A stretch of 32,000 bases of DNA. Origin: Candidatus Altimarinota bacterium. Lineage in GTDB: Bacteria; Patescibacteriota; Gracilibacteria; UBA1369. The stretch spans positions 70,036 to 102,035 of the forward strand of contig JBAZYK010000006.1 in NCBI GenBank assembly GCA_041659405.1, in the 5' to 3' direction. Positions 9,024-29,447 of the stretch are shown piece after piece (the first letter of the stretch is position 1; each line of letters opens with the position of its first letter). Position numbers and translations under genes: made by a program. Below the pieces are notes generated by a model, which did no database searches, was not told the origin of the DNA, and saw nothing but the letters and a program-made list of their open reading frames with translations.

Positions 9024-9284
9024 TCACAATCCTTCATAAATATCCTTACGATGCCTGGCATAAATAAGGATAATTTTTTGCTTTTCCAGTTTAAAAACCA
9101 GGCGATAATCACCAATTCTAAATCTAAAAACATCTTTATATCCCTTGAGTTTTTTGGCAAACAACAAAGGGTTTTCAGTCTTTATCAAAAAACTCAGTTT
9201 TTCTTTTATTCTCGGCTGAAGACTTTTCTCCAGTTTATTAAAATCATCAACAAAATCTTTAGTGGTGATAAATTCGTACATCAA
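9024..9284 (-). CDS. Type II toxin, RelE/ParE family
   Basis: 86 aa. Contains KGYKDVFRFRIGDYRLVFKLEKQKIILIYARHRKDIYE, the typical RelE/ParE core. The start codon abuts the stop of the upstream antitoxin ORF. Confidence 0.85.
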   Translation of the reverse strand: MMYEFITTKDFVDDFNKLEKSLQPRIKEKLSFLIKTENPLLFAKKLKGYKDVFRFRIGDYRLVFKLEKQKIILIYARHRKDIYEGL

Positions 9285-9545
9285 TTACAAAATAGATTCT
9301 AAAGGGAATTTTTTGGCCTTCTTAAGCTTTTTCAAGCTTGCATCCAGCTCTGTTTTAAACTCATTTTTTAACGGCAGATTTTCTTCGATTAAATCTTCAA
9401 ACTCCTGTTTACTCAAAAAAATACCAATCTCCTTGCCATTTTTAACAATACGAACAATTTTGGCATCAAGAGCTTTAGCCGGATTTTTTTGCAATTCCGA
9501 AAGCGAAACAATCTTTTCTTTGCTTAATACGGACGAGGTGGTCAT
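9285..9545 (-). CDS. Type II antitoxin (Phd/YefM-like)
   Basis: 86 aa from the ATG at 9545-9543: MTTSSVLSKEKIVSLSELQKNPAKALDAKIVRIVKNGKEIGIFLSKQEFEDL... The pattern (seLrknl...vvi.knGk.v.vlls.eeye.l) is typical of the family. The longer track ORF reaching 9863 would run through the predicted promoter. Confidence 0.75.
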   Translation of the reverse strand: MTTSSVLSKEKIVSLSELQKNPAKALDAKIVRIVKNGKEIGIFLSKQEFEDLIEENLPLKNEFKTELDASLKKLKKAKKFPLESIL

Positions 9546-9573
9546 ATAAAGTTTATAGTTAAATACTACTATA

Positions 9574-9602
9574 AGTTTATCGTAGAATTCCCAATTAGTC
9601 AA
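9574..9602 (-). promoter_or_regulatory. Putative sigma70-type promoter of the toxin-antitoxin operon
   Basis: On the minus strand, TTGACT (9602-9597), a 17-nt spacer, then TAAACT (9579-9574). The inverted repeat TATAGT/ACTATA (9554-9559 / 9568-9573) and the direct repeat AAGTTTAT (9549-9556 and 9573-9580) lie between the -10 box and the start codon, so they are possible autoregulatory operators. Confidence 0.4.
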
Positions 9603-9644
9603 CGGATAGGGCGCAAGATTCACGGGCAAATAAGTCATTATTAT

Positions 9645-10060: not shown

Positions 10061-10680
10061 AAGCTCTACCAGTGAATGATCGCTGCAGCTTTCTTTTCTA
10101 AAAAAAAGCATGAACGAAAAAGCTTGAAGCAAAGCGTGAATTATTTTGGGATTGGGTCTCGTGGGTCCCAATCCCAAAATAATTCCGCTACCGCGAAAAG
10201 CTTTTAAGTGAATACAATATAGGGAAAGAGAGCACCACGAGAGAAAACCGTCAGGTTGTCTCTCGTGAACTGCAGAGGAAAGTCCGAGCACCATGGAACA
10301 GGATGGCTTCTAACGGAAGCGGCTCAGCATGAAAGTGTTGAGTACGGAAAGTACCACAGAGACTATGAAAGCTGCGCGCAAGCGTAGCCAAAGGTGAAAA
10401 GCCCAGTCGTAAAGCGTAAAATTCCAGGCCGCGGCGCAAGCCAATAAGCCAGAATGTAACGCCAGACAGGGCGCCCCTCGGTGACGAGGAGACGTGGCAA
10501 ACCCTATCCGGTGCAAGGTGGGATGGAAGAAAAAGATCAAGTTTTGTTCCAAAACCTTTTTCTGCCCACCGCACGATTTCATAGGCAACTATGAAACAAG
10601 AGAGATGATCATACTTTGTTTATGCGCCGCAAGGTGCATCAACAGAGAACAAAACTCGGCTTATGATCTGGTAGAGCAAT
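10061..10680 (+). ncRNA. rnpB: RNase P RNA, bacterial type A core with a greatly expanded P3
   Basis: P4 5' strand AGGAAAGTCCGAGC (10276-10289). 3' strand ACAGAGAACAAAACTCGGCTTAT (10642-10664), pairing with the conserved bulged U. P1 GCTCTACCAG (10063-10072) pairs with CTGGTAGAGC (10668-10677). P2 ATGATC (10076-10081) pairs with GATCAT (10607-10612). P18-like hairpin TTTCATAG-GCAA-CTATGAAA. P19-like hairpin ATGCGCC-GCAA-GGTGCAT. GGTGAAA-type J11/12 sequence is present. Confidence 0.88.
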
Positions 10681-19201: not shown

Positions 19202-21490
19202 TTAATTAATATAAATCTCCCTCGCCTTCGCCCCGTTCACCGGCCCAATCGCGCCGTTTTGCTCCATCATATCAAGCAAACGGGCCGCACGAGCATATCC
19301 CAACTTCAAACGTCTTTGCAACAATGACGCGGAAGCCTTGCGACTTTCAATCACAACCTGCAAAGCCTGCTGATACATTTCTTCATCATCCGAATCAGCC
19401 AAAGTGCTTTCCGGAATTCCCTGAACTTTTTCCTGGGCAACCTTTGTGGAAATAATTTCTTCCAAATAATCCGGCGCAGGACTCACCAATTTAATATTAT
19501 TGGTAACACGTTCAATTTCTTTTGTGGAAACGTAAATTCCCTGAATACGAACCGGCTTACTCATGCCACCGGGCAGATAAAGCATGTCACCTTTTCCAAG
19601 CAAATCTTCTGCACCAATTCCGTCCAAAATCGTTCTGGAATCGATTGAAGAACTCACTGCAAAAGCAATACGCGCAGGAATGTTAGCCTTAATCAATCCG
19701 GTAATAACATCCACAGAAGGTCTTTGGGTAGCCACAATCAGATGAATACCAACCGCGCGCGCCATCTGCGCAATTCTACAAATTGAAGCCTCAACTTCTT
19801 TCCCGGCTGCCATCATCAAGTCAGCCAACTCATCAATCACAATGACAATGTTTGGCATTTTTTGATGACCCACCGATTCTCTTCCTTCCTCGTGAACATC
19901 AACACAAGTATTAAACTCGGTAATATTGCGATGCTTATTTTCCGCACATAATTGATAACGACGATTCATTTCCGCAACCGCCCAACGCAACGCAATCGCA
20001 GCCTTTCCCGGATCGGTAATCACCGGCGTCAAAAGATGCGGAATTCCGTTATATGAACCCATTTCCACACGTTTAGGATCGATCATAATCAACTTCAAAT
20101 CGTTTGGAGAATTCTGATACAAAAGCGAAATCAAAAACGTATTCATTCCCACAGATTTTCCGGAACCGGTGGCACCCGCGACCAATAAATGAGGCATGGC
20201 AGCCAAATCTCCACACATCGGTTTTCCGGAAACATCACGTCCCAAAGGCAATCTTAAGTTAGATTGAATTTCATTAAATTCTTTAGTCTCCAAAATTTCA
20301 CGCAAATGCACCAAAGTTCGGTGATCGTTCGGCACTTCAATTCCAACCAAAGATTTTCCCGGAATCGGAGCTTCAATACGAATCGCCTTAGCCGCAAGAG
20401 CAAGCGCTAAATCGTTCTTCAGCGCCACGATTTTTGAAAGTTTAATTCCTTCATGAGGACGCAAAGTATATTGAATTACCGTTGGCCCAACATGAACCTC
20501 GTGCATGCCAACATCAATCCCAAACTGGGAAAGTTTTTCGCTGATCTTCTGGGCATTATCCTTCAATAAAGCATCATCGGATTCACCTTCGGAAATCGCA
20601 GCAGGATTCAACAAATCCATTGATGGCGGAGCCCAATTTGAAAAAACATCTTCATCACCTTCCTTGGAAGTAAGAGCTTCACGTTCCTCATTTTTAATTG
20701 GAATAATACGCTCAATGGTGGCGGTAGTCGCGATCGGCACAGTTGGCGAAATCTGCGCCCTTTTAATCGTAATCATTTCTGCAGGATTATGATCAGCCGG
20801 CTTTTTAAAATCATCATCAACCAGAGCTTCAACTTTTCTCAACAATTCCTCGGGCATGTTCTTTAACAAATCCTCATCTTCGTCCTCTTCCTCATCTTCA
20901 TATTTACCTGAATTTCGTTGGCGAATAAAATGCAAATCCGGTTTCAGGAAACTGACAAAATTAACAATCGAAACCTCAAAAGTTAAAAGAATCGAAACAA
21001 TTAGCAAAGTTATAAAAATAGCACTCGCTCCAATCGCATTTATACCTATGATCTCCCTCACCAAAAAATTGGTAACAAAGCCAACATATCCACCATAATT
21101 GCCACCCTGGGCCATAGTATAAAGATCATTCATCGGCACCGAAAGATGCAAAATACTCAAAGATGAAACCATTAAAAGAAAAATTCCAACCAGTCTGGAA
21201 AAAGGGAAAACAATCTTCTTGGAAAGAAAAAGCATTAACGAAGCCCCGATCAAAAAAACCGGCAAAGCGTAAGTCCCCCAGCCCAAAATAGGCTTTAAAA
21301 CACTAACCCACATCGCGCCGGCATCACCAAAATTATTGCGCAAACTTAAGAAGGTAATTGCGCCCAGGCCCAGGTAAAAAACCGCATAAATTTCACGCAG
21401 AACCGAAGATTTAACCTTAAAAGTTATTGCCCCCCTTTTGCGCCGAGTTGTGCGCGTCTGATTGCGACGACGTCTTCGAGCCATAATCAA
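19202..21490 (-). CDS. ftsK: DNA translocase FtsK/SpoIIIE
   Basis: 762 aa. N-terminal TM helices, acidic linker, motor domain with Walker A LVAGATGSGKS and Walker B IVIVIDELADLMM, and a C-terminal gamma winged-helix (LLQRRLKLGYARAARLLDMMEQNG). Confidence 0.95.
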   Translation of the reverse strand: MIMARRRRRNQTRTTRRKRGAITFKVKSSVLREIYAVFYLGLGAITFLSLRNNFGDAGAMWVSVLKPILGWGTYALPVFLIGASLMLFLSKKIVFPFSRLVGIFLLMVSSLSILHLSVPMNDLYTMAQGGNYGGYVGFVTNFLVREIIGINAIGASAIFITLLIVSILLTFEVSIVNFVSFLKPDLHFIRQRNSGKYEDEEEDEDEDLLKNMPEELLRKVEALVDDDFKKPADHNPAEMITIKRAQISPTVPIATTATIERIIPIKNEEREALTSKEGDEDVFSNWAPPSMDLLNPAAISEGESDDALLKDNAQKISEKLSQFGIDVGMHEVHVGPTVIQYTLRPHEGIKLSKIVALKNDLALALAAKAIRIEAPIPGKSLVGIEVPNDHRTLVHLREILETKEFNEIQSNLRLPLGRDVSGKPMCGDLAAMPHLLVAGATGSGKSVGMNTFLISLLYQNSPNDLKLIMIDPKRVEMGSYNGIPHLLTPVITDPGKAAIALRWAVAEMNRRYQLCAENKHRNITEFNTCVDVHEEGRESVGHQKMPNIVIVIDELADLMMAAGKEVEASICRIAQMARAVGIHLIVATQRPSVDVITGLIKANIPARIAFAVSSSIDSRTILDGIGAEDLLGKGDMLYLPGGMSKPVRIQGIYVSTKEIERVTNNIKLVSPAPDYLEEIISTKVAQEKVQGIPESTLADSDDEEMYQQALQVVIESRKASASLLQRRLKLGYARAARLLDMMEQNGAIGPVNGAKAREIYIN

Positions 21491-21543
21491 AAATTACAAA
21501 AACAGCGATATTATACTAAAAAAGCTTCGTTTTGGAAATAAGG

Positions 21544-21939
21544 TTATTTACTTGCAGGTGCCCACGGCCCAAAATAAGGTTTTTTCCGTTTATTTATTGT
21601 AAAAAGCTGACAACCTTTCTCATCATAGACAAATTTACCTCTCCCCTGTTCATTTTTCGCTTTCTTATTTTTGGGAATTATATATTTCTCAGCTAAAAGC
21701 TCGTCAAAGGCCACATCAAAATGGGCACGGTCTTCAGGCTTAATGCCCAAATCCTCTACAAGCTGCTCTCTTGAAAACGGATAACAAGTATCAAAATGTA
21801 GCTCATGTTGCGCATCCAATCTTGTTCGTAAAAGATGCTTAAATATAACCACGTTATCTTCAGGCAAAATTTCTCCCCCCATTCTGACTCCAGGCGTTCT
21901 TGGTTGTTTCTCAGTCCTTCTTTCTACTTCGAGTGCCAT
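21544..21939 (-). CDS. Hypothetical protein, 131 aa, basic tail; possible winged-helix-like segment
   Basis: Intact ORF preceded by a good promoter. The segment FSREQLVEDLGIKPEDRAHFDVAFDELLAEKYIIPKN looks HTH/wHTH-like, but this is a guess only. Confidence 0.6.
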   Translation of the reverse strand: MALEVERRTEKQPRTPGVRMGGEILPEDNVVIFKHLLRTRLDAQHELHFDTCYPFSREQLVEDLGIKPEDRAHFDVAFDELLAEKYIIPKNKKAKNEQGRGKFVYDEKGCQLFTINKRKKPYFGPWAPASK

Positions 21940-21961
21940 ATTTTACGATTAAAACAAGCGT

Positions 21962-21990
21962 ATAATATCACCTTTAATCGCCACAGTCAA
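21962..21990 (-). promoter_or_regulatory. Putative promoter of the 131-aa gene
   Basis: On the minus strand, TTGACT (21990-21985), a 17-nt spacer, then TATTAT (21967-21962), ending 22 nt before the ATG. The -35 box is part of the duplicated module. Confidence 0.5.
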
Positions 21991-22075
21991 CACCATCGCA
22001 GCAGTAAGCCTTAAAACGATCCTTCGTCAACGAAGTCGCGAATAGAACAGATTATTTCAAACTCGCAATTTAATC
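21976..22075. repeat. Duplicated upstream module, copy 1 (~100 bp)
   Basis: Aligns with 23435-23535. The 48-bp block CGCAGCAGTAAGCCTTAAAACGATCCTTCGTCAACGAAGTCGCGAATA (21997-22044) is identical to 23453-23500. The flanks are about 80-90% identical by eye. Confidence 0.9.
22022..22035. promoter_or_regulatory. 6-2-6 inverted repeat CTTCGT-CA-ACGAAG within module copy 1 (candidate operator/activator site)
   Basis: Perfect 6-bp arms, centred about 41 bp upstream of the -35 box. The identical site occurs in copy 2 at 23478-23491. Confidence 0.4.
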
Positions 22076-22080
22076 AAATT

Positions 22081-23388
22081 CTACATCAAAGTATAAGCCG
22101 CCCGCATTTTTACATCTTTCTTACCCTCTCCAACTTTAACAAACCAGCGCTTTCTATTATCAACTAGATCAACATACTCAACTTTGGTAACTCCTGTTAA
22201 TGTGATCCTAACATTATCAGCATCTAAAAAACCCACTTTGACATTAGAATCAAGTTTAAATTCTTCTGATCCATCTAAAGCGGTACAATCGCTCTCGGTC
22301 CTATCAATTATAGGCGGCAACTCATGCTTCGCCACTGACCAATATTGACCTTCATATCTTTTTAAAGATTTTTGCGTAAGTCCCAAGTATTCATAATCTT
22401 TTATTAATCTTAAACCATGTTCTTTTAGATAATCATGAGAATTTTCATCAAAATTTCGAGCAGGAGAATCCACACCATCACAAATACTTACTTCACATCT
22501 TTCCAATGGGCCAGACCAGCCAGATGAATCATCTTGTATTTTAGTTGGCTCCAAGTAAATCAAAGTTGGCTCACCACCTCTATTATTTAAAAACTGCATA
22601 CTTATACCAAGAATTTGGTGTCTATTTCCTTGCAAATTCATATTTTGAACTAATTTTTTCGGAGATTGACGAGCAGGACTGATTACCAACTCCGGAGTTC
22701 GCATAACATTAATAATATTTTTTAATTGTTGTGGACTTAGTGCCATTATTTTACGAATTACTTGTTCTTTAGTAGGCACATAAATTTCAGGATCCAATTC
22801 CTTTGCAGAGAAAACGGCATCATCATAACCAGCCACTAATTTTAATATTTTTTCTTTTTCGAATTTATTAAATGGTAGCTGTTCAACAAAATCCATCAAA
22901 TCCTTTTCAGCATCATCCCTTAAAGGTTCTGTGCTTTTTTGTGTAACAGAATAAAGGCTCTTGCCTTTTGAATTTGATTTAAAAGCAGCACCCATCGCCT
23001 TTGAAACTCTTTGGTTAACTTTATTTAATCTTCTACGCATTGCAGGAGTAACCACTTCTTCGCTATCTGATCTCAATAACCTTTTTCCAGTTTTTTGAAT
23101 TTCTTCTAACCTCTCTATACGACCTTTAGTTTCTTCTAAATAACTCTTTAAATAAACTTTAAAATTCTCAAGGTAACCTAAAAGTTCGTTCACCTGTTTA
23201 ACCGTAAAATCTTCCTGAGCTGTAATCCCAATTTTTGATGCATATTCATCAACATCCGAAATTTCCAAAAAAAATTTTCTTAAATAAAAATTCATTTTTT
23301 TTGGATCTCCAATTTTATTAAGTTCCTCCAATAAATGTTCCGGAGATGGTTCAGAACTATTTATTTCTAAATTTTTTGAGAACGTCAT
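22081..23388 (-). CDS. Hypothetical protein, 435 aa (orphan family member 1)
   Basis: Long intact ORF with its own promoter. N-terminal half is coiled-coil-like. I recognised no catalytic motif. Collinear short motifs are shared with the 383-aa protein at 26917-28068. Confidence 0.7.
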   Translation of the reverse strand: MTFSKNLEINSSEPSPEHLLEELNKIGDPKKMNFYLRKFFLEISDVDEYASKIGITAQEDFTVKQVNELLGYLENFKVYLKSYLEETKGRIERLEEIQKTGKRLLRSDSEEVVTPAMRRRLNKVNQRVSKAMGAAFKSNSKGKSLYSVTQKSTEPLRDDAEKDLMDFVEQLPFNKFEKEKILKLVAGYDDAVFSAKELDPEIYVPTKEQVIRKIMALSPQQLKNIINVMRTPELVISPARQSPKKLVQNMNLQGNRHQILGISMQFLNNRGGEPTLIYLEPTKIQDDSSGWSGPLERCEVSICDGVDSPARNFDENSHDYLKEHGLRLIKDYEYLGLTQKSLKRYEGQYWSVAKHELPPIIDRTESDCTALDGSEEFKLDSNVKVGFLDADNVRITLTGVTKVEYVDLVDNRKRWFVKVGEGKKDVKMRAAYTLM

Positions 23389-23417
23389 ACATTCATGCTT
23401 AGATTTATTTTCTATAC

Positions 23418-23446
23418 ACTATACCATTTTAAAGAATCGCAGTCAA
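23418..23446 (-). promoter_or_regulatory. Putative promoter of the 435-aa gene
   Basis: On the minus strand, TTGACT (23446-23441), a 17-nt spacer, then TATAGT (23423-23418), ending 29 nt before the ATG. Confidence 0.5.
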
Positions 23447-23535
23447 CACCGCCGCAGCAGTAAGCCTTAAAACGATCCTTCGTCAACGAAGTCGCGAATA
23501 AACCAGAAAATCCCAAACTCGCAACTGAATTAAAC
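23435..23535. repeat. Duplicated upstream module, copy 2 (~100 bp)
   Basis: See copy 1. The identical 48-bp core is at 23453-23500 and includes the CTTCGT-CA-ACGAAG palindrome at 23478-23491. Confidence 0.9.
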
Positions 23536-23628
23536 ACGCCATGATTTGGAGCAAACCACTCATCTCAAATTTTGCCATAATGACAAATATTGCTATTATA
23601 AGCACGATTTTTTAATTTTGCCCACCCC

Positions 23629-25329
23629 ATGCGCACCCGTTTTGCCCCTTCACCTACAGGTTACCTCCATGTTGGAGGCCTTAGAACTTGTTTATACAAC
23701 TACCTGATCGCCAAAAAAAATAAAGGCACTTTTATTCTTCGCATTGAAGATACCGACCAGACTCGTTATGTAGAAGGCACCGTGGAAAGCCTTTTATCAA
23801 CTTTGAATTGGATGGGGCTGGATAATGATGAAGGCCCATTTTTGGAAAAATCCGCCGATTCCAAATCCGAAACTGCCAATCCTGCTCACGACCAAAAATC
23901 CGCCGCCGGAAAATCCACCACCATCGCCCAAAAAGGCAACTTTGGCCCATACATTCAATCTCAAAGAACCGAACTTTATCGCAAACATGCACAAGAATTA
24001 TTAGAAAAAGATGCCGCTTATTTTTGTTTTTGTACGACTGAGCGACTGGAGCAAATGCGTGAGCAGCAAGCCAGAAACAAGCAAGCTCCCATGTATGATC
24101 GCACCTGTTTAAAACTGAAACCGGAAGAAGTCGAAGCCAAAAAACAAGCCGGAACACCTTTTGTAATCCGCCAAAAAATCCCCCGTGACCAAAAAGTCAC
24201 CATCAAAGATCTGATTCGCGGACGCGTTGAATTTGACGGCAAAACTATTGATGATCAGGTTTTAATCAAATCCGACAACTTCCCGACTTATCATTTGGCC
24301 AATGTTGTTGATGACCATTATATGGAAATCACCCACGTGATCCGCGGTGAAGAATGGCTTCCTTCTACGCCAAAACACATCTTTCTGTACAAAGCTTTTG
24401 GCTGGCAGGAACCTGAATTTGCGCATATTCCCCTGCTCCTTAATAAGGACAAAACTAAACTCAGCAAGCGCCAGGGCGACGTAAGTGTGGAAGACTACAT
24501 CAAAAAGGGCTATTGCAAAGAAGCCATCATCAATTTTATTGCGCTTCTTGGCTGGCATCCGGGCAAAGGTGAAGAACAGGAAATGTTTAGTTTGGATGAG
24601 CTGGTAGAGAAATTTTCGTTTGAGCAAATCCACAAAGCCGGCGCGATTTTTGATATCGAAAAACTGAACTGGTTTAATTTTAAGTGGAACAAAAAGAAAT
24701 ATCAGGAAAAATTGGAGAAAATTGCCAAAGAAATCGATCCAAATGCGACAATCACTCAAACCGAAAAAGGCGAATCAATTTACAGCTTTAGTAAGCCAGA
24801 ATCTGAAAAAACTTTTACCGAAAAGCGTGGTGAAATTCTTTACAACATGGCTGAAAATCATCTACCGGAAGAGTGGAAGAAAGAAGTTGCGACCGCCGAC
24901 AAAAATACGGTCCCAAAACTTTACCGCTGCCTTATCACCATTGAAGAAAAAATTCTGCGCACACCACTTGAAGCTAAAGACCACCTTAACTTCTATTTTG
25001 AACAAAAAACTTTAGATAACGAAGCTTTATTTGCTCTCATGCTCAACCCAAAAATGAAGGTTGATCAGGAAACTGCCAAAAAAGCGATCAATACAGCTCT
25101 CGTCAAACTCACAGAATTGGATAACGACAACTTTAACAATCAGGAAAAAATCAAAGCCACACTTTTACAAACCGTAATCGACTTAAACCTTAAAAATGGC
25201 CAGGTTCTGTGGCCACTCCGCGTTTCGCTTACCCACGAACAATTTTCCCCGGGAGTTTTTGAAGTAATTTGGGCTTTAGGCAAAGAAGAAACCATTCAAA
25301 GACTCAAAAAGGATCTGGCACTTTTATAG
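23629..25329 (+). CDS. gltX: Glutamate-tRNA ligase
   Basis: 566 aa. RTRFAPSPTGYLHVGGLRT (HIGH-type motif) and the KMSKS-type motif KLSKRQG. Also NVVDDHYMEITHVIRGEEWL. Confidence 0.95.
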   Translation: MRTRFAPSPTGYLHVGGLRTCLYNYLIAKKNKGTFILRIEDTDQTRYVEGTVESLLSTLNWMGLDNDEGPFLEKSADSKSETANPAHDQKSAAGKSTTIAQKGNFGPYIQSQRTELYRKHAQELLEKDAAYFCFCTTERLEQMREQQARNKQAPMYDRTCLKLKPEEVEAKKQAGTPFVIRQKIPRDQKVTIKDLIRGRVEFDGKTIDDQVLIKSDNFPTYHLANVVDDHYMEITHVIRGEEWLPSTPKHIFLYKAFGWQEPEFAHIPLLLNKDKTKLSKRQGDVSVEDYIKKGYCKEAIINFIALLGWHPGKGEEQEMFSLDELVEKFSFEQIHKAGAIFDIEKLNWFNFKWNKKKYQEKLEKIAKEIDPNATITQTEKGESIYSFSKPESEKTFTEKRGEILYNMAENHLPEEWKKEVATADKNTVPKLYRCLITIEEKILRTPLEAKDHLNFYFEQKTLDNEALFALMLNPKMKVDQETAKKAINTALVKLTELDNDNFNNQEKIKATLLQTVIDLNLKNGQVLWPLRVSLTHEQFSPGVFEVIWALGKEETIQRLKKDLALL

Positions 25330-25480
25330 CCAAAAATCAACTCAAAGGAAATCACAAACCTTTACAACCATAAATTTTAAAGGCATCATTGGGGCGAACA
25401 CACAAAGCTCGCTCACCCAACGGTACAAGCAGCTCTTCGGGCCCACTAGTAACTGTAATTCCCATAACCTCTAGCAGCCC

Positions 25481-25804
25481 ATGAACTTTTCAGAACTTCA
25501 ACAAATCATTAAACACTTAAAAAAAGAGGTACCCTGCCATGCTTGCCAGAAAAAGTTTGGCAACAGAGGCATGCAGGTAATTTCCACTTTTCAGAACGAA
25601 GCCTTGCTGCAAATGGATTGTTTTAATTGTACCAACCGTCTGCTTGTTCACGTCGCGATCATCAATCAGCAACAGGAAAAAGGCACACTTAAGCCCCAAG
25701 CGGAATTCACTTTTCACAGTGAAATCAGCAAAAACGAAATCTTGGACATGCACAATTTTCTGAATAAATTTAATGGAGATTTTAAAGAACTCTTCACCAT
25801 ATGA
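25481..25804 (+). CDS. Hypothetical small protein with two CxxC pairs (possible zinc ribbon)
   Basis: 107 aa with CHAC and CFNC spaced about 25 residues apart. Its stop overlaps the next ATG (ATGA). Confidence 0.5.
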   Translation: MNFSELQQIIKHLKKEVPCHACQKKFGNRGMQVISTFQNEALLQMDCFNCTNRLLVHVAIINQQQEKGTLKPQAEFTFHSEISKNEILDMHNFLNKFNGDFKELFTI

Positions 25805-26106
25805 AAAATATGAAAAAAAATTCTTTCACCACGCATGCAAGCAAAACAAGCTCCATTCTAGCGCTAGGCGCTTTTGCTCTAACCGCAGCGATAATTCTGG
25901 GCGGTTGCAACCAACTTAAAGAACAAGCTCAAGGTCTTAGAAAAAGCGGCGAAACTTTGGTAAATCAGGCCTCACAGCAGGCCGAAGCGGCGAAAACCCA
26001 ACTAATCCAAACCAAAGCGGAAATCGACCAAAAAGTTAAGGATTTGCAAGATGCCGGCCAAAAAGTCCAAGAGGCCAACGCCGCAATCCAGAAACTGGGA
26101 AAATAA
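25801..26106 (+). CDS. Putative lipoprotein with coiled-coil body
   Basis: 101 aa. Signal peptide ending in the lipobox ILGGC, followed by a Q/A/K-rich helical region. Confidence 0.6.
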   Translation: MKNMKKNSFTTHASKTSSILALGAFALTAAIILGGCNQLKEQAQGLRKSGETLVNQASQQAEAAKTQLIQTKAEIDQKVKDLQDAGQKVQEANAAIQKLGK

Positions 26107-26149
26107 TTTAATTCTAAAAATCCTTTCACAAGGGTACTAGGGTCTTCAA

Positions 26150-26222
26150 GGGAATAAATGTGTCATTTGAACACATCCCGCAGCAAAGCGAGGACTGTGT
26201 GAAAAGGACGCATTTATTCTCC
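26150..26222. repeat. Palindromic element copy D (same inner stem as B and C, different loop)
   Basis: The core at 26168-26203 is TGAACACATCC-CGCAGCAAAGCGAGGA-CTGTGTGAA. The arms GGGAATAAATGTGTCATT and AAAAGGACGCATTTATTCTCC are largely complementary. The element ends 1 nt before the ATG at 26224. Confidence 0.8.
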
Positions 26223-26223
26223 T

Positions 26224-26916
26224 ATGAAATTAAAGATACAGTTTCACCTCCATACCAAAAAAGACCCGCTTGATGCCGTAAAACACACCGAAATGGAGCT
26301 GATCGACGAAGCGGCCCGCCTTGGATATGATGTTTTGGCCATCACCTGTCATGATGTGCTTATTTTTGAGGAAAGTTTAAAGAAATACGCCGAAAAAAAG
26401 CGCATTTTGCTGATTCCCGGGATCGAAAAAACCATTCTCGGCCGGCATGTTTTGATCATCAACGCCGACATCCACTCCCAATACATCAAAAATTTTGCGG
26501 ATCTTAAAAAATATCGCCAAGATCATCCCGAAATTCTGGTGATTGCCCCGCATCCATGCTATCCGGGCCCAATTTGTCTTCATAAACATCTGGAAAAACA
26601 CATCGACCTTTTTGATGCGATTGAGTATTCCTGGTATCACTCGGCCAAACTGAATCAGTACAACAAAAAAGCCATCGCCATTGCCGAAAAGTATCATAAA
26701 CCATTAATTGGTACTGCCGATAACCACATCCTAAAATACCTGAACATGACTTATAGCCTTGTGGACAGCGAAAAAAACGTGCCATCAATTTTCAAAGCCA
26801 TCAAAGCCAACAATCTTCAAATCGTCAGCCTAAATCTACCCTGGTGGAAACTGTTTACGATTATGCCTTACATGCTAATCACGGCATACATAAAAAAGTT
26901 CACGCTGAAGTGCTAA
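26224..26916 (+). CDS. PHP-domain metal-dependent phosphoesterase
   Basis: 230 aa. N-terminal FHLHTKKD...ELIDEAARLGYDVLAITCHD and later histidines (APHP, ADNH) fit the PHP family pattern. Confidence 0.75.
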   Translation: MKLKIQFHLHTKKDPLDAVKHTEMELIDEAARLGYDVLAITCHDVLIFEESLKKYAEKKRILLIPGIEKTILGRHVLIINADIHSQYIKNFADLKKYRQDHPEILVIAPHPCYPGPICLHKHLEKHIDLFDAIEYSWYHSAKLNQYNKKAIAIAEKYHKPLIGTADNHILKYLNMTYSLVDSEKNVPSIFKAIKANNLQIVSLNLPWWKLFTIMPYMLITAYIKKFTLKC

Positions 26917-28068
26917 CTAAGCTTCCTTTGGCACATAAAGCCCCCCGGCCGAACGACGAACGCGAAGGTCCCTATCCTGATACCCAGAACGGGAGCTACG
27001 CAAGCCGACCTTGACCTCATAAGTATCCCCGACGGGAACAAGCGGACTTTCTCCTCTTTCGCCCATATCAAGAAGACTAACACCGACTAAATCAATAGGG
27101 TTGCCTTCTTCTTTCATTGCTGTCGCCAAAACGGCATAAGCAGAAGGAGACGGATGTTGCATTTTATCCGCGACTAATTCCTTTCGTGAAAAATCATAAT
27201 TTTTCCCATTATTGTAATGGTCGCTGGCAGGATTGTCGCAATCTACCGGTAAATATGAAAGTTCACTATCCGCAGCACCTTCTACGATCCTGATATCAAA
27301 CTTACGGGATTTCTTTTCCACTCCAGCTTCTGGGGTCTTCCCTCCAAAGAAAATAGGTTTTTCAGGGTCAGGACAAAAGAAATCATTTTCTTTTCTTTCA
27401 GAAAGGGCTTTAATTTCTTCGGGGGTTAATTCAGGAGCGACAACCAGTTTAGGCGATTTTAAAGTTCGTAATTTATCAAGATCGATTTCTCCTTTTTCAT
27501 GCAATTCAGCCAAAAAAACTAGAGATTGCAGATGAGTTGGAACACCTTCCGCAAGCTTCCTGGCTTTTAATACACCAAGATTTTTACCGTAATCCGCAAA
27601 AAATCCAAATTTATTTAGAAACTTACGATTCTTCGGTGTTAATCTTGTTAATGCTGTTTTAGCAAGAACAGCAGCAACTTTTTCATGTTGTCCTTTTGCA
27701 ACCTCCGCTACAATCTCATCACCATAACCTTTTACCTCATAACTACCTTCTAACATTTCCTTTACCTCCTGTAATGCCGCAATAAAATCTTCTACTGTCT
27801 TGGCTTCCATTTCCGCTTCATTTTCAGACGTTATAAATCCTTCAGTCTTTAAATAAAAATAAAAAGTCCCATCAGAAGTATTAACCGACCCATGATCAAA
27901 AAAATCTTTTACCGACATTATCTTTAATTCCGGCTTACTGGCAATATGATCTCTCAATAAGTTAATACCTTTACTCAATTTCACTTTCATTTGGTACTGA
28001 ACCGTTTCCGTTTTGATAGCTTGACGTTCATGCCCTCGAACCTCAGCTTGTTCTGATTCTAAACTCAT
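26917..28068 (-). CDS. Hypothetical protein, 383 aa (orphan family member 2)
   Basis: Long intact ORF with its own promoter. Shares collinear motifs with the 435-aa protein: TPKNRKFLNK vs TPAMRRRLNK, SPKLVVAP vs TPELVISP, and RDLRVRRSA vs KDVKMRAAY near the C-termini. Confidence 0.7.
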   Translation of the reverse strand: MSLESEQAEVRGHERQAIKTETVQYQMKVKLSKGINLLRDHIASKPELKIMSVKDFFDHGSVNTSDGTFYFYLKTEGFITSENEAEMEAKTVEDFIAALQEVKEMLEGSYEVKGYGDEIVAEVAKGQHEKVAAVLAKTALTRLTPKNRKFLNKFGFFADYGKNLGVLKARKLAEGVPTHLQSLVFLAELHEKGEIDLDKLRTLKSPKLVVAPELTPEEIKALSERKENDFFCPDPEKPIFFGGKTPEAGVEKKSRKFDIRIVEGAADSELSYLPVDCDNPASDHYNNGKNYDFSRKELVADKMQHPSPSAYAVLATAMKEEGNPIDLVGVSLLDMGERGESPLVPVGDTYEVKVGLRSSRSGYQDRDLRVRRSAGGLYVPKEA

Positions 28069-28113
28069 AATTTTTAAATTATTTAATAAATTTGCACCAC
28101 ATTAAAGGCACAC

Positions 28114-28143
28114 AATATACAACGTAATTTGCGTGTTTGTCAA
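28114..28143 (-). promoter_or_regulatory. Putative promoter of the 383-aa gene
   Basis: On the minus strand, TTGACA (28143-28138), an 18-nt spacer, then TATATT (28119-28114). Confidence 0.45.
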
Positions 28144-28177
28144 TTTTAGCAAACACCTGCTTACCCGTTTATCAAAG

Positions 28178-28314
28178 TTTCCGGAGGGAATGGCTTCTTG
28201 GCGACATTGCGAGCGCAGCCGGTCGAGCATCATGATGCGAGACCTTCGCGGAGGCGTACATGTAGCCGCAGCGAACTGGCGAAGCGTTCGCCAAGAAGCC
28301 ATTCCCTCCGAAAA
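28178..28314. repeat. Large compound hairpin (about 26-bp closing stem, 83-nt structured interior)
   Basis: TTTCCGGAGGGAATGGCTTCTTGGCGA (28178-28204) pairs with TCGCCAAGAAGCCATTCCCTCCGAAA (28288-28313), with one bulged C. The interior holds the palindrome GGTCGAGCATCA/TGATGCGAGACC (28221-28244), which has a tandem GA/GA mismatch, and further stems (TTCGC...GCGAA, GGCGAA-GCG-TTCGCC). The outer pairing CCCGTTTATC / GATAAACAGG extends the structure to 28164-28339. Confidence 0.85.
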
Positions 28315-28352
28315 CTCCCCTGAAAAAGCGATAAACAGGCACGCGTTCCCCA

Positions 28353-28381
28353 TTGAAGAAAAAGCCAAAAAATGCTATAAT
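28353..28381 (+). promoter_or_regulatory. Putative pta-ackA promoter
   Basis: TTGAAG (28353-28358), a 17-nt spacer, then TATAAT (28376-28381). The ATG at 28404 follows 22 nt later. Confidence 0.5.
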
Positions 28382-28403
28382 TAGACAAAATAAAAACCAA
28401 CCA

Positions 28404-29447
28404 ATGGACTTCTTAAAAGAAATCAAATCAAAAGCCAAAACTCTTCAAAAAAGGATCGTTTTCCCGGAAAGTTTTGATGACCGCACGCTGCAAGCGCTTG
28501 AGGTTATTTTGAATGAGCAAACCGCTCAGCCAATTTTGCTTGGAAAAACCCAAGAAATTCAAGCTCAAGCTGCTAAACTCGGCCTTAAAATCGACTGGAA
28601 TAAAGTTAAAATTATTGACCCTAAAGATCCAACTTACCTCCAAAAATACACTGACGAGCTTTATAATCTGCGCAAAGATAAAGGTCTGACCAAAGACCAG
28701 GCCGCCAAACTTCTTGAAAATCACGACTATTTTGGCGTGATGGCTGTTCACATGGATGATGCCGAGGGCATGATCTCGGGCGCCGTTGGCACAACTGCCG
28801 AAACGGTTCTTCCCGCGCTTCAGATCATCAAAACTAAAGAAAAATTCCATAAAGTTTCCGGAATTTTCTTTATGGTGCTGGAAAAACGTCTGCTGCTTTT
28901 TGCTGATTGTGCCGTGAATATTGAGCCGGATTCGCATGAACTCGCCGATATTGCCATTGATACTGCCGAAACCGCTCTTCGTTTTGGGCTTGTGCCAAAA
29001 ATTGCCATGCTCTCTTTTTCGACTAACGGATCAGCAAAACACCCACTCGCTAACAAAGTGCGTGAAGCCACCCAAATGGTTAAATTTCGCCGCCCCGACC
29101 TTATAATTGATGGAGAAATGCAAGTTGATGCCGCACTTGTCCCAAATATTTGCGCTACAAAATTTCCCGGAAGCGCTTTACATGGCGACGCCAATATTCT
29201 TATTTTCCCTGATCTGCAAGCCGGAAATATAGCTTACAAATTGGTAGAAAGATTGGCCGGCGCAAAAGCCATTGGCCCAATTTTACAGGGTTTGCAAAAA
29301 CCAATTAACGACCTTTCCCGTGGCTGTTCTTTTCATGATATTGCCGATCTGGCCGCCTTTACTTCGTGTGAATCACAAGAAATTCATTACGAACTAAAAG
29401 CCGAAGCCATGCACGAAATTGTTCGCTCACATAAAGACACAAAATGA
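28404..29447 (+). CDS. pta: Phosphate acetyltransferase
   Basis: From the ATG at 28404: MDFLKEIKSKAKTLQKRIVFPESFDDRTLQA... and ANILIFPDLQAGNIAYKL, matching the PTA_PTB family. The earlier in-frame start at 28353 would overlap the predicted promoter. Confidence 0.9.
   Translation: MDFLKEIKSKAKTLQKRIVFPESFDDRTLQALEVILNEQTAQPILLGKTQEIQAQAAKLGLKIDWNKVKIIDPKDPTYLQKYTDELYNLRKDKGLTKDQAAKLLENHDYFGVMAVHMDDAEGMISGAVGTTAETVLPALQIIKTKEKFHKVSGIFFMVLEKRLLLFADCAVNIEPDSHELADIAIDTAETALRFGLVPKIAMLSFSTNGSAKHPLANKVREATQMVKFRRPDLIIDGEMQVDAALVPNICATKFPGSALHGDANILIFPDLQAGNIAYKLVERLAGAKAIGPILQGLQKPINDLSRGCSFHDIADLAAFTSCESQEIHYELKAEAMHEIVRSHKDTK

Follow-up and report, generated by a model that had tools for sequence, protein, structure and literature searches.

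Between ftsK and gltX, in a 32,000-nt stretch of contig JBAZYK010000006.1 from an uncultured Candidatus Altimarinota bacterium (assembly GCA_041659405.1; hereafter the window), two genes encoding proteins of 131 and 435 amino acids (aa) are each preceded by a copy of the same promoter-like module. A first-pass annotation, made from the sequence alone, had offered two readings of this arrangement: a shared regulatory module that places both genes under one regulator, or the scar of a duplication or insertion that delivered the 435-aa gene. The second is the best supported, with the repeat as the ordinary footprint of a gene gain and not a new regulatory system, and we consider it probable that a 1,456-bp unit, consisting of the 435-aa gene and one copy of the promoter region, became fixed in the ftsK-gltX gap of this lineage. 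In the closest relative, the promoter region is present once and the 435-aa gene is missing, GC content at third codon positions (GC3) is lower in this gene than in any other of the window, and the gap is variable in more distant relatives. Each repeat would be a copy of the promoter region that belongs to the small gene beside ftsK, and the gained unit would have comprised the 435-aa gene and one copy of approximately 115-140 nt of upstream region, so that each gene was left behind its own TTGACT-17-TAT(T/A)(A/G)T promoter.

The duplicated module of about 100 bp described in the first-pass annotation was recovered on exact alignment as a direct repeat of 114 nt with 82% identity and a spacing of 1,456 nt, the sole family reported by the repeat search (Table 1); the repeat itself stands, although the segments originally given for it (21976-22075 and 23435-23535) are a few bases off. 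With blastn, the two modules aligned over 85 nt at 90.6% identity (21984-22068 against 23440-23524). As both genes lie on the minus strand, the modules are read from right to left, which corrects the orientation assumed previously. Copy 1 begins three bases past the stop codon of the 435-aa gene, and 25 nt separate its end from the ATG of the 131-aa gene. Read along the minus strand, the order of elements in each copy is the block TTGCGAGTTTG, approximately 20 variable bases and the perfect core of 48 nt, found as originally described and made up of TATTCGCGA-CTTCGTTGACGAAG-GATCGTTTTAAGGCTTACTGCTGCG. After the core come GGTGTTGACT, which includes the −35 box, a 17-nt spacer and a −10 box (TATTAT or TATAGT) preceded by TG. 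Identity is 48/48 in the core versus about 70% in the flanks, and a run of 48 identities within 114 nt containing 20 mismatches has p ~1e-4, which indicates that identity along the repeat is uneven. Over the region from about −36 to −98, 61 of 63 positions are the same in the two copies.

Within the sequence searched, the module is not a dispersed repeat. A 47-nt pattern taken from the core matched the window exactly twice, whereas shuffles expect 0 matches. The search for further copies covered positions 1-49,919 of the 110.5-kb source contig, where blastn and nhmmer detected no third copy. The genome, metagenome and viral collections contained 0 matches to a 20-nt core pattern, and the metagenome collection contained none to a degenerate pattern of the conserved module columns; among all fetched loci, the degenerate pattern matched only the two window copies and one relative. 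The core thus occurs at no further site in the searched part of the contig or in the three public collections, which speaks against the generic repeat that the first-pass annotation had considered, and two copies fall short of the many expected of a dispersed repeat or a miniature inverted-repeat transposable element (MITE). Neither the module nor the 1,456-bp unit was found to end in inverted repeats, and no small open reading frame (ORF) is common to both copies. Rfam gave no match for the repeat at the gathering threshold, nor any with E ≤ 1 in 21400-28450, its only match being an RNase P RNA elsewhere, and folding of the module did not differ significantly from shuffles on either strand (z −1.0 to −0.1).

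The consensus scan recovered both promoters proposed in the first-pass annotation. Each has near-consensus hexamers, a spacer within the 16-18 nt typical of sigma-70 promoters and a close ORF, the predicted promoters ending 22 nt (131-aa gene) and 29 nt (435-aa gene) before the ATG. Because of this sequence and the conservation of an orthologous promoter in the closest relative, we infer that each copy provides a sigma-70-type promoter to the gene downstream, and both promoters presumably fire.

That relative, L005 (contig CAZOQT010000006.1), is the closest species representative, with 86% identity in FtsK and 77% in GltX. Its layout is ftsK, an ORF of 115 aa and gltX, with one homologous promoter region, and neither tblastn nor a profile search detected a homologue of the 435-aa protein in it. 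This layout corresponds to the empty site that the first-pass annotation had proposed to look for, except that the 115-aa ORF shows no significant similarity to the 131-aa protein encoded in the same position. Homology to the 3′ half of the module extends over part of the 199 nt that precede the 115-aa ORF, where GATgGTTTaAgGGCTTAtTatTGCG is followed by TGTTGACT-17-TATTAT; the palindrome and all of the module upstream of it lack conservation in L005. Local alignment to this region gave z scores of 3.6 for copy 1 and 4.9 for copy 2, and the promoter region of ftsK is also kept in L005 (z 7.0). By homology, the module is the promoter region of a small gene beside ftsK in the lineage of the window and L005. 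The differences between the copies could be polarised against L005: copy 2, on the gltX side, retains the L005-like 5′ flank and −35/−10 spacer, and copy 1 retains the L005-like −10 region TATTATAnGC and the leader. Polarised in this way, the flanks on the outside (copy 2 towards gltX, copy 1 at its −10 box and leader) would be ancestral and those on the inside derived, which is the pattern that an addition of 1,456 bp, i.e., the gene and one module, should produce.

The same gap was compared across the clade. ftsK and gltX are directly adjacent in L008, L009, L010, L011, L012, L017 and L032, and unrelated genes occupy the gap in L007, L016, L018, L019 and L033, with inserts of 0.7-1.3 kb. As the gap is either empty or filled with unrelated genes in these relatives, it is by this comparison a site of gene turnover across Peregrinibacteria. 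No repeats flank the genes inserted in the gap of other relatives, nor do they surround another member of the 435-aa family. In the gap of L032, the sequence ATTCGCACTTAG is left over from the 3′ end of the gene present in L007, indicative of a deletion in L032.

The impression that the 435-aa gene is more AT-rich than its neighbours was borne out by its GC content of 0.333, versus 0.430 for ftsK and 0.419 for gltX. Its GC3 of 0.23 is the lowest among the 25 genes measured, with 0.31-0.52 in 12 conserved reference genes, and its composition follows the order GC1 > GC2 > GC3, the pattern of a real coding sequence. The low GC3 favours a gain of foreign DNA in this lineage.

We infer the direction and the mechanism of the event. 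Candidate mechanisms are a single crossover that integrated a circle with a homologous module on it, unequal exchange between allelic versions of the variable gap, and template switching. Gene conversion or a recent tract of short length would most likely account for the perfect core within diverged flanks. In L005, conservation of the core does not exceed that of the flanks (60% versus 50-56% identity), and the core is for this reason probably not a specially constrained operator. The hairpin and T-run of copy 1, directly behind the stop codon of the 435-aa gene, may end the 435-aa transcript; alternatively, transcription may continue into the 131-aa gene and ftsK. Given the direct orientation of the repeats, recombination from one copy to the other could remove the 435-aa gene again and return the locus to the single-copy state. 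On this account, the locus would be a clean, datable case of gene gain in an uncultured small-genome bacterium, in which the gained gene was equipped with a working-looking promoter by copying that of its neighbour. It would add one more example to a familiar type of event, in which a variable intergenic site gains a gene along with a duplicated promoter, and leaves current understanding unchanged; its usefulness lies mainly in annotation and in a candidate for structure prediction from a family alignment.

Table 1. Coordinates of the genes, repeats and predicted signals, numbered from the first letter of the window
Feature	Position	Strand	Basis and remarks
131-aa gene	21544..21939 (start 21939 -> 21544)	minus	ORF list; singleton, possible winged-helix protein
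435-aa gene	22081..23388 (23388 -> 22081); stop codon 22081-22083	minus	ORF list
ftsK	21490 -> 19202	minus	ORF list; downstream of the 131-aa gene
gltX	23629-25329	plus	ORF list; divergent from the 435-aa gene
383-aa gene	26917..28068	minus	Probable distant paralogue of the 435-aa gene
Module copy 1	21965..22078	minus	Reference copy of direct-repeat family D1; fills the gap between the 435-aa stop codon and the 131-aa gene
Module copy 2	23421..23534	minus	Second copy of D1; between the divergently oriented gltX and 435-aa genes
Perfect core, copy 1	21997..22044	unstranded	48 nt identical
Perfect core, copy 2	23453..23500	unstranded	48 nt identical to copy 1
Predicted sigma-70-type promoter, 131-aa gene	21962..21990 (21990->21962)	minus	TTGACT-17-TATTAT, TG before −10; consensus scan 10/12
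Predicted sigma-70-type promoter, 435-aa gene	23418..23446 (23446->23418)	minus	TTGACT-17-TATAGT, TG before −10; consensus scan 10/12
Predicted promoter of ftsK itself	21510..21538	minus	TTTCCA-17-TATAAT, downstream of the 131-aa gene; consensus scan
Predicted gltX promoter	23572..23599	plus	TTGCCA-16-TATTAT, divergent from module copy 2; consensus scan
Inverted repeat CTTCGT-CA-ACGAAG, copy 1	22022..22035	unstranded	Pattern search; terminator-like in scan
Inverted repeat CTTCGT-CA-ACGAAG, copy 2	23478..23491	unstranded	Pattern search and terminator scan

Several points weigh against a gain in this lineage as set out above. There is one close relative only, L005, so the gene may have been lost there by recombination between the repeats. 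The uneven identity resembles neither a simple old nor a simple recent duplication and needs gene conversion or selection as an extra assumption. Promoter activity is predicted from the sequence. No similarity was detectable between the 131-aa and 115-aa ORFs, so even the 'resident gene' may be a replacement. Moreover, the arrangement comes from one k=141 assembly, k=31 contigs from Logan break at the core, and the search for further copies spanned at most about half of one contig.

The first of these points corresponds to an alternative in which the module pair and the 435-aa gene were already present before the lineages of the window and L005 split, and recombination between the repeats later removed the gene from L005. 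Deletion between direct repeats would leave exactly the single-copy state found in L005, and the L032/L007 pair, with the shorter gap of L032 and its remnant of the L007 gene 3′ end, shows that losses happen at this site. More distant relatives, however, all lack both the module and the gene, and the GC3 of the 435-aa gene argues for a recent foreign origin with a composition still unadjusted to the genome. A perfect core of 48 nt would also be unexpected at the divergence at which GltX retains 77% identity, unless gene conversion had acted. We therefore regard an ancestral arrangement with loss in L005 as unlikely.

A different account makes the module a shared operator, in which the palindrome and core bind one factor at about −74 of both promoters, possibly the 131-aa protein, the two genes are co-regulated or autoregulated as a unit and selection preserves the identity of the core. 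As noted in the first-pass annotation, the palindrome lies about 41 bp upstream of the −35 box, and the distance of 41 nt from centre to centre is the same in both copies; the identity of the core is also non-random. The palindrome is absent from L005, however, and the core is kept there little differently from its flanks. We estimate the chance of finding a 6+2+6 palindrome in approximately 114 nt at ~0.1, and the second copy does not count as independent evidence because it is present only through the duplication, as a by-product of it. By sequence comparison, the palindrome is neither conserved nor significant by itself. On the minus strand, the palindrome of copy 1 forms a 5-bp hairpin followed by GATCGTTTT, and a terminator scan flagged CTTCGTTGACGAAG followed by GATCGTTTTA, with a stem of only 5 bp and a U4 run that begins 5 nt after it; the hairpin folds at −7.4 kcal/mol, no better than shuffles. 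Since the copies are nearly identical between −36 and −98, any factor acting there would touch both genes, but such co-regulation would be a consequence of the duplication and not evidence for a designed two-gene system.

The 131-aa protein offers the operator account a candidate regulator. Its single-sequence structural model has the order helix-helix-helix-β-β-β, i.e., three helices followed by a β-hairpin region, and the best match of this model in the Protein Data Bank (PDB) by Foldseek was the winged-helix domain of Rpa2, followed by GntR-type regulators. The model is of low confidence, with a predicted local distance difference test score (pLDDT) of 60, and the matches are not significant (best E 0.075). 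Neither a helix-turn-helix domain nor any other family match was found in Pfam, NCBIfam, PHROGs and PADLOC, and a word-index search of 5.8e9 proteins returned no homologue. The model is suggestive of a possible winged-helix protein, and a regulatory role founded on so weak a winged-helix-like model would itself be weakly founded. The partner gene is also missing beside other members of the 435-aa family, as described below. Taken together, a shared operator seems to us rather improbable.

In a third account, the 1,456-bp unit would be a mobile cassette that moves by site-specific recombination at the core, in the manner of integron cassettes or Xer-dependent elements, with the two copies as attL and attR and a recombinase supplied from elsewhere or by the 435-aa protein itself. 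Direct repeats with a perfect core and diverged arms do bracket one gene of atypical composition, the unit resembles in size a second insertion at 26917-28345, and the gap varies across the clade. Against it, no recombinase domain was found in the 435-aa protein in Pfam, NCBIfam, PHROGs and PADLOC, nor in its family, and no integrase family is present among the Pfam hits listed for genes called in the 50 kb that was read. The resident promoter of L005 is homologous to part of the repeat, which makes the repeat chromosomal and not element-specific sequence. The searches of the contig and collections described above yielded no other copy of the module, flanking repeats are lacking at other family members and at other genes in this gap, and the second insertion is without such repeats. 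We consider a mobile cassette very unlikely. The window was found to contain no tRNA or tmRNA gene as a potential att target. The 6+2+6 palindrome has neither dif-like nor attC-like geometry. A dif/Xer element was also rejected on the absence of a GC skew switch across the window and on the proximity of the origin rather than the terminus, which is suggested by an rpmH-rnpA-yidC cluster approximately 15 kb away.

A combination of the last two accounts, in which a self-contained cassette with its own promoter exchanges at the 48-bp core without a recombinase of its own and the 131-aa protein binds both palindromes, would amount to a cassette-exchange and control system specific to small-genome, Peregrinibacteria-type bacteria; we find it more doubtful still. 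Finally, it is barely credible that the arrangement is an assembly artefact in which two strain alleles, or a free circle and the chromosome, were joined via the shared core: all records trace to a single metagenome assembly and the k=31 contigs do break at the core, but the k=141 graph (according to the contig name) exceeds the 114-nt repeat, so real 141-mers should span the flank pairs, and the reads must contain the unique sequence that connects a module copy with the 435-aa stop codon. The Logan contigs L002 and L004 (SRR6484324), independent k=31 assemblies, break exactly within the 48-nt core; L002 covers the window from 23482 to 22015. These contigs neither confirm nor contradict the linkage and could not show an empty-site allele.

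Returning to the gained gene, its product was taken for an orphan in the first-pass annotation but proved to have relatives. A word-index search with the 435-aa protein returned only the protein itself, and a family-profile search through the same index returned only the window's own proteins. Exhaustive phmmer searching of 1.84 billion representatives gave 42 proteins at E ≤ 1e-3 including the query, i.e., 41 others, and 15 at E ≤ 1e-10 (query included). A profile built without the window proteins scored the 435-aa protein at E 1.3e-41, placing it in the family. Members are 240-660 aa long, except for one protein of 3,280 aa, and the ten whose annotation was looked up are described as nothing beyond 'hypothetical protein'. 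The family is recognised by the motifs KEKL..GY.EAV.TAKE.DP, M.KP.LII.P..SF.E, KV.VSIVD, GMRLI...EYA..Q.SLR.Y and LRGR..VQV. The 435-aa protein consists of a helical N-terminal domain (approximately residues 1-150), shared with fusions to DUF4256, and a C-terminal domain of approximately 280 aa that defines the unnamed family. It has no match in Pfam, PF14066 (DUF4256) included, and no sequence match in the PDB; its single-sequence structure was unusable (pLDDT 38).

Five members share only the N-terminal ~150 residues, and in these Pfam DUF4256 replaces the C-terminal domain (best E 2e-57). Homology between the two C-terminal domains was not supported by hhalign (E 0.054 over 27 columns), and no mention of DUF4256 was found in the literature searched. 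At L087 (5995-10715), five tandem paralogues share an N-terminal region of ~65 aa (MNENC.KWHEQ...), three with DUF4256 and two with the family C-domain; this array lies downstream of two very large ORFs, one of which has a faint AAA_5 match. The supposed orphan thus belongs to a sparse, unnamed modular family that swaps C-terminal domains with DUF4256 proteins and occurs in tandem arrays.

The 435-aa and 131-aa proteins are unrelated to each other. No 131-aa-like neighbour was found in the examined neighbourhoods of other family members, and the two genes are therefore no conserved pair, which removes the undescribed two-gene unit suggested in the first-pass annotation. At L085 (5392-5869 and 7618-7878), beside P0003, the closest family member, two overlapping ORFs of 80 aa were seen that by eye resemble an AbrB-type antitoxin and a RelE/ParE-type toxin, together with a nearby 86-aa ORF whose first 42 nt duplicate the 3′ end of the P0003 gene at 93% identity.

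The window contains a second lineage-specific insertion relative to L005, located at 26917-28345 between the stop codon of a PHP-domain gene and the conserved promoter of pta. It carries the gene for a 383-aa protein, which is absent from the syntenic site of L005, where the PHP gene is directly followed by pta. By profile comparison, this gene and the 435-aa gene are probably distant paralogues: hhalign of the 383-aa protein against the 435-aa family gave a probability of 59% and E 9e-5 over 217 columns, and hmmsearch gave only 10.4 bits. The 383-aa gene has its own predicted promoter (TTGACA-18-TATATT, 28143->28114), and no direct repeats were seen to flank the insertion. Between this promoter and pta lies a G+C-rich element of ~140 nt (28180-28330) with near-perfect inverted arms of 23-29 nt, CGGAGGGAATGGCTTCTTGGCGA and TCGCCAAGAAGCCATTCCCTCCG; it belongs to the insertion absent from L005, is present as a single copy in all sequence examined and has no Rfam match.

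The two genes of the ftsK-gltX gap carry the locus tags WC843_03850 and WC843_03855 in the source record, where the proteins are labelled 'Candidatus Gracilibacteria bacterium' by NCBI. Despite this label, the close relatives of GltX and FtsK are all Peregrinibacteria/Peribacteria. UGA recoding, which the label raises, was rejected on this affiliation and on the long conserved ORFs, which are uninterrupted under table 11. Elsewhere in the window, the RNase P RNA is of bacterial class A (10247-10679, plus strand, 143.7 bits) and is overlapped on the opposite strand by a spurious 107-aa ORF. A toxin-antitoxin-like pair occupies 9024-9638 on the minus strand, in the stretch of lowest GC in the window (0.326), and consists of a 117-aa ORF followed by an 86-aa ORF to which the source record assigns Pfam ParE_toxin.

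The locus can be compared with several known systems. Class I activator sites, such as those of CRP at −61.5 or −72.5 of sigma-70 promoters, resemble the inverted repeat centred about 74 nt upstream of the predicted transcription start, but the palindrome has half-sites of only 6 bp and lacks conservation in L005. Promoter-carrying dispersed repeats and MITEs, of which the Correia elements of Neisseria are an example, likewise give a −35 box and upstream region to a downstream gene, whereas the module is limited to two copies in tandem around one gene, has no terminal inverted repeats and occurs nowhere else in the searched sequence. Integron cassettes with attC share with this locus a single gene bracketed by repeats of ~100 nt that hold an inverted repeat. 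They differ in that no integrase is among the Pfam hits listed for the 50 kb and a single gene is present in place of an array, in that cassettes are usually promoterless while the repeat here has a complete promoter, and in that attC has an R''-L''/L'-R' architecture and the palindrome is 6+2+6. With DUF4256 (PF14066) proteins, the 435-aa protein has its N-terminal ~150 residues in common, and genes of the two kinds alternate in one tandem array, although its C-terminal domain is not detectably related. Direct repeats arise by single-crossover (Campbell-type) integration or segmental duplication. The locus differs from such cases in having no recombinase or element ends, in a repeat that is partly resident promoter and in the patchiness of its identity; it resembles them in that direct repeats bracket one inserted gene, the outer flanks appear ancestral and the inner ones derived, and the event would be reversible by recombination between the repeats.

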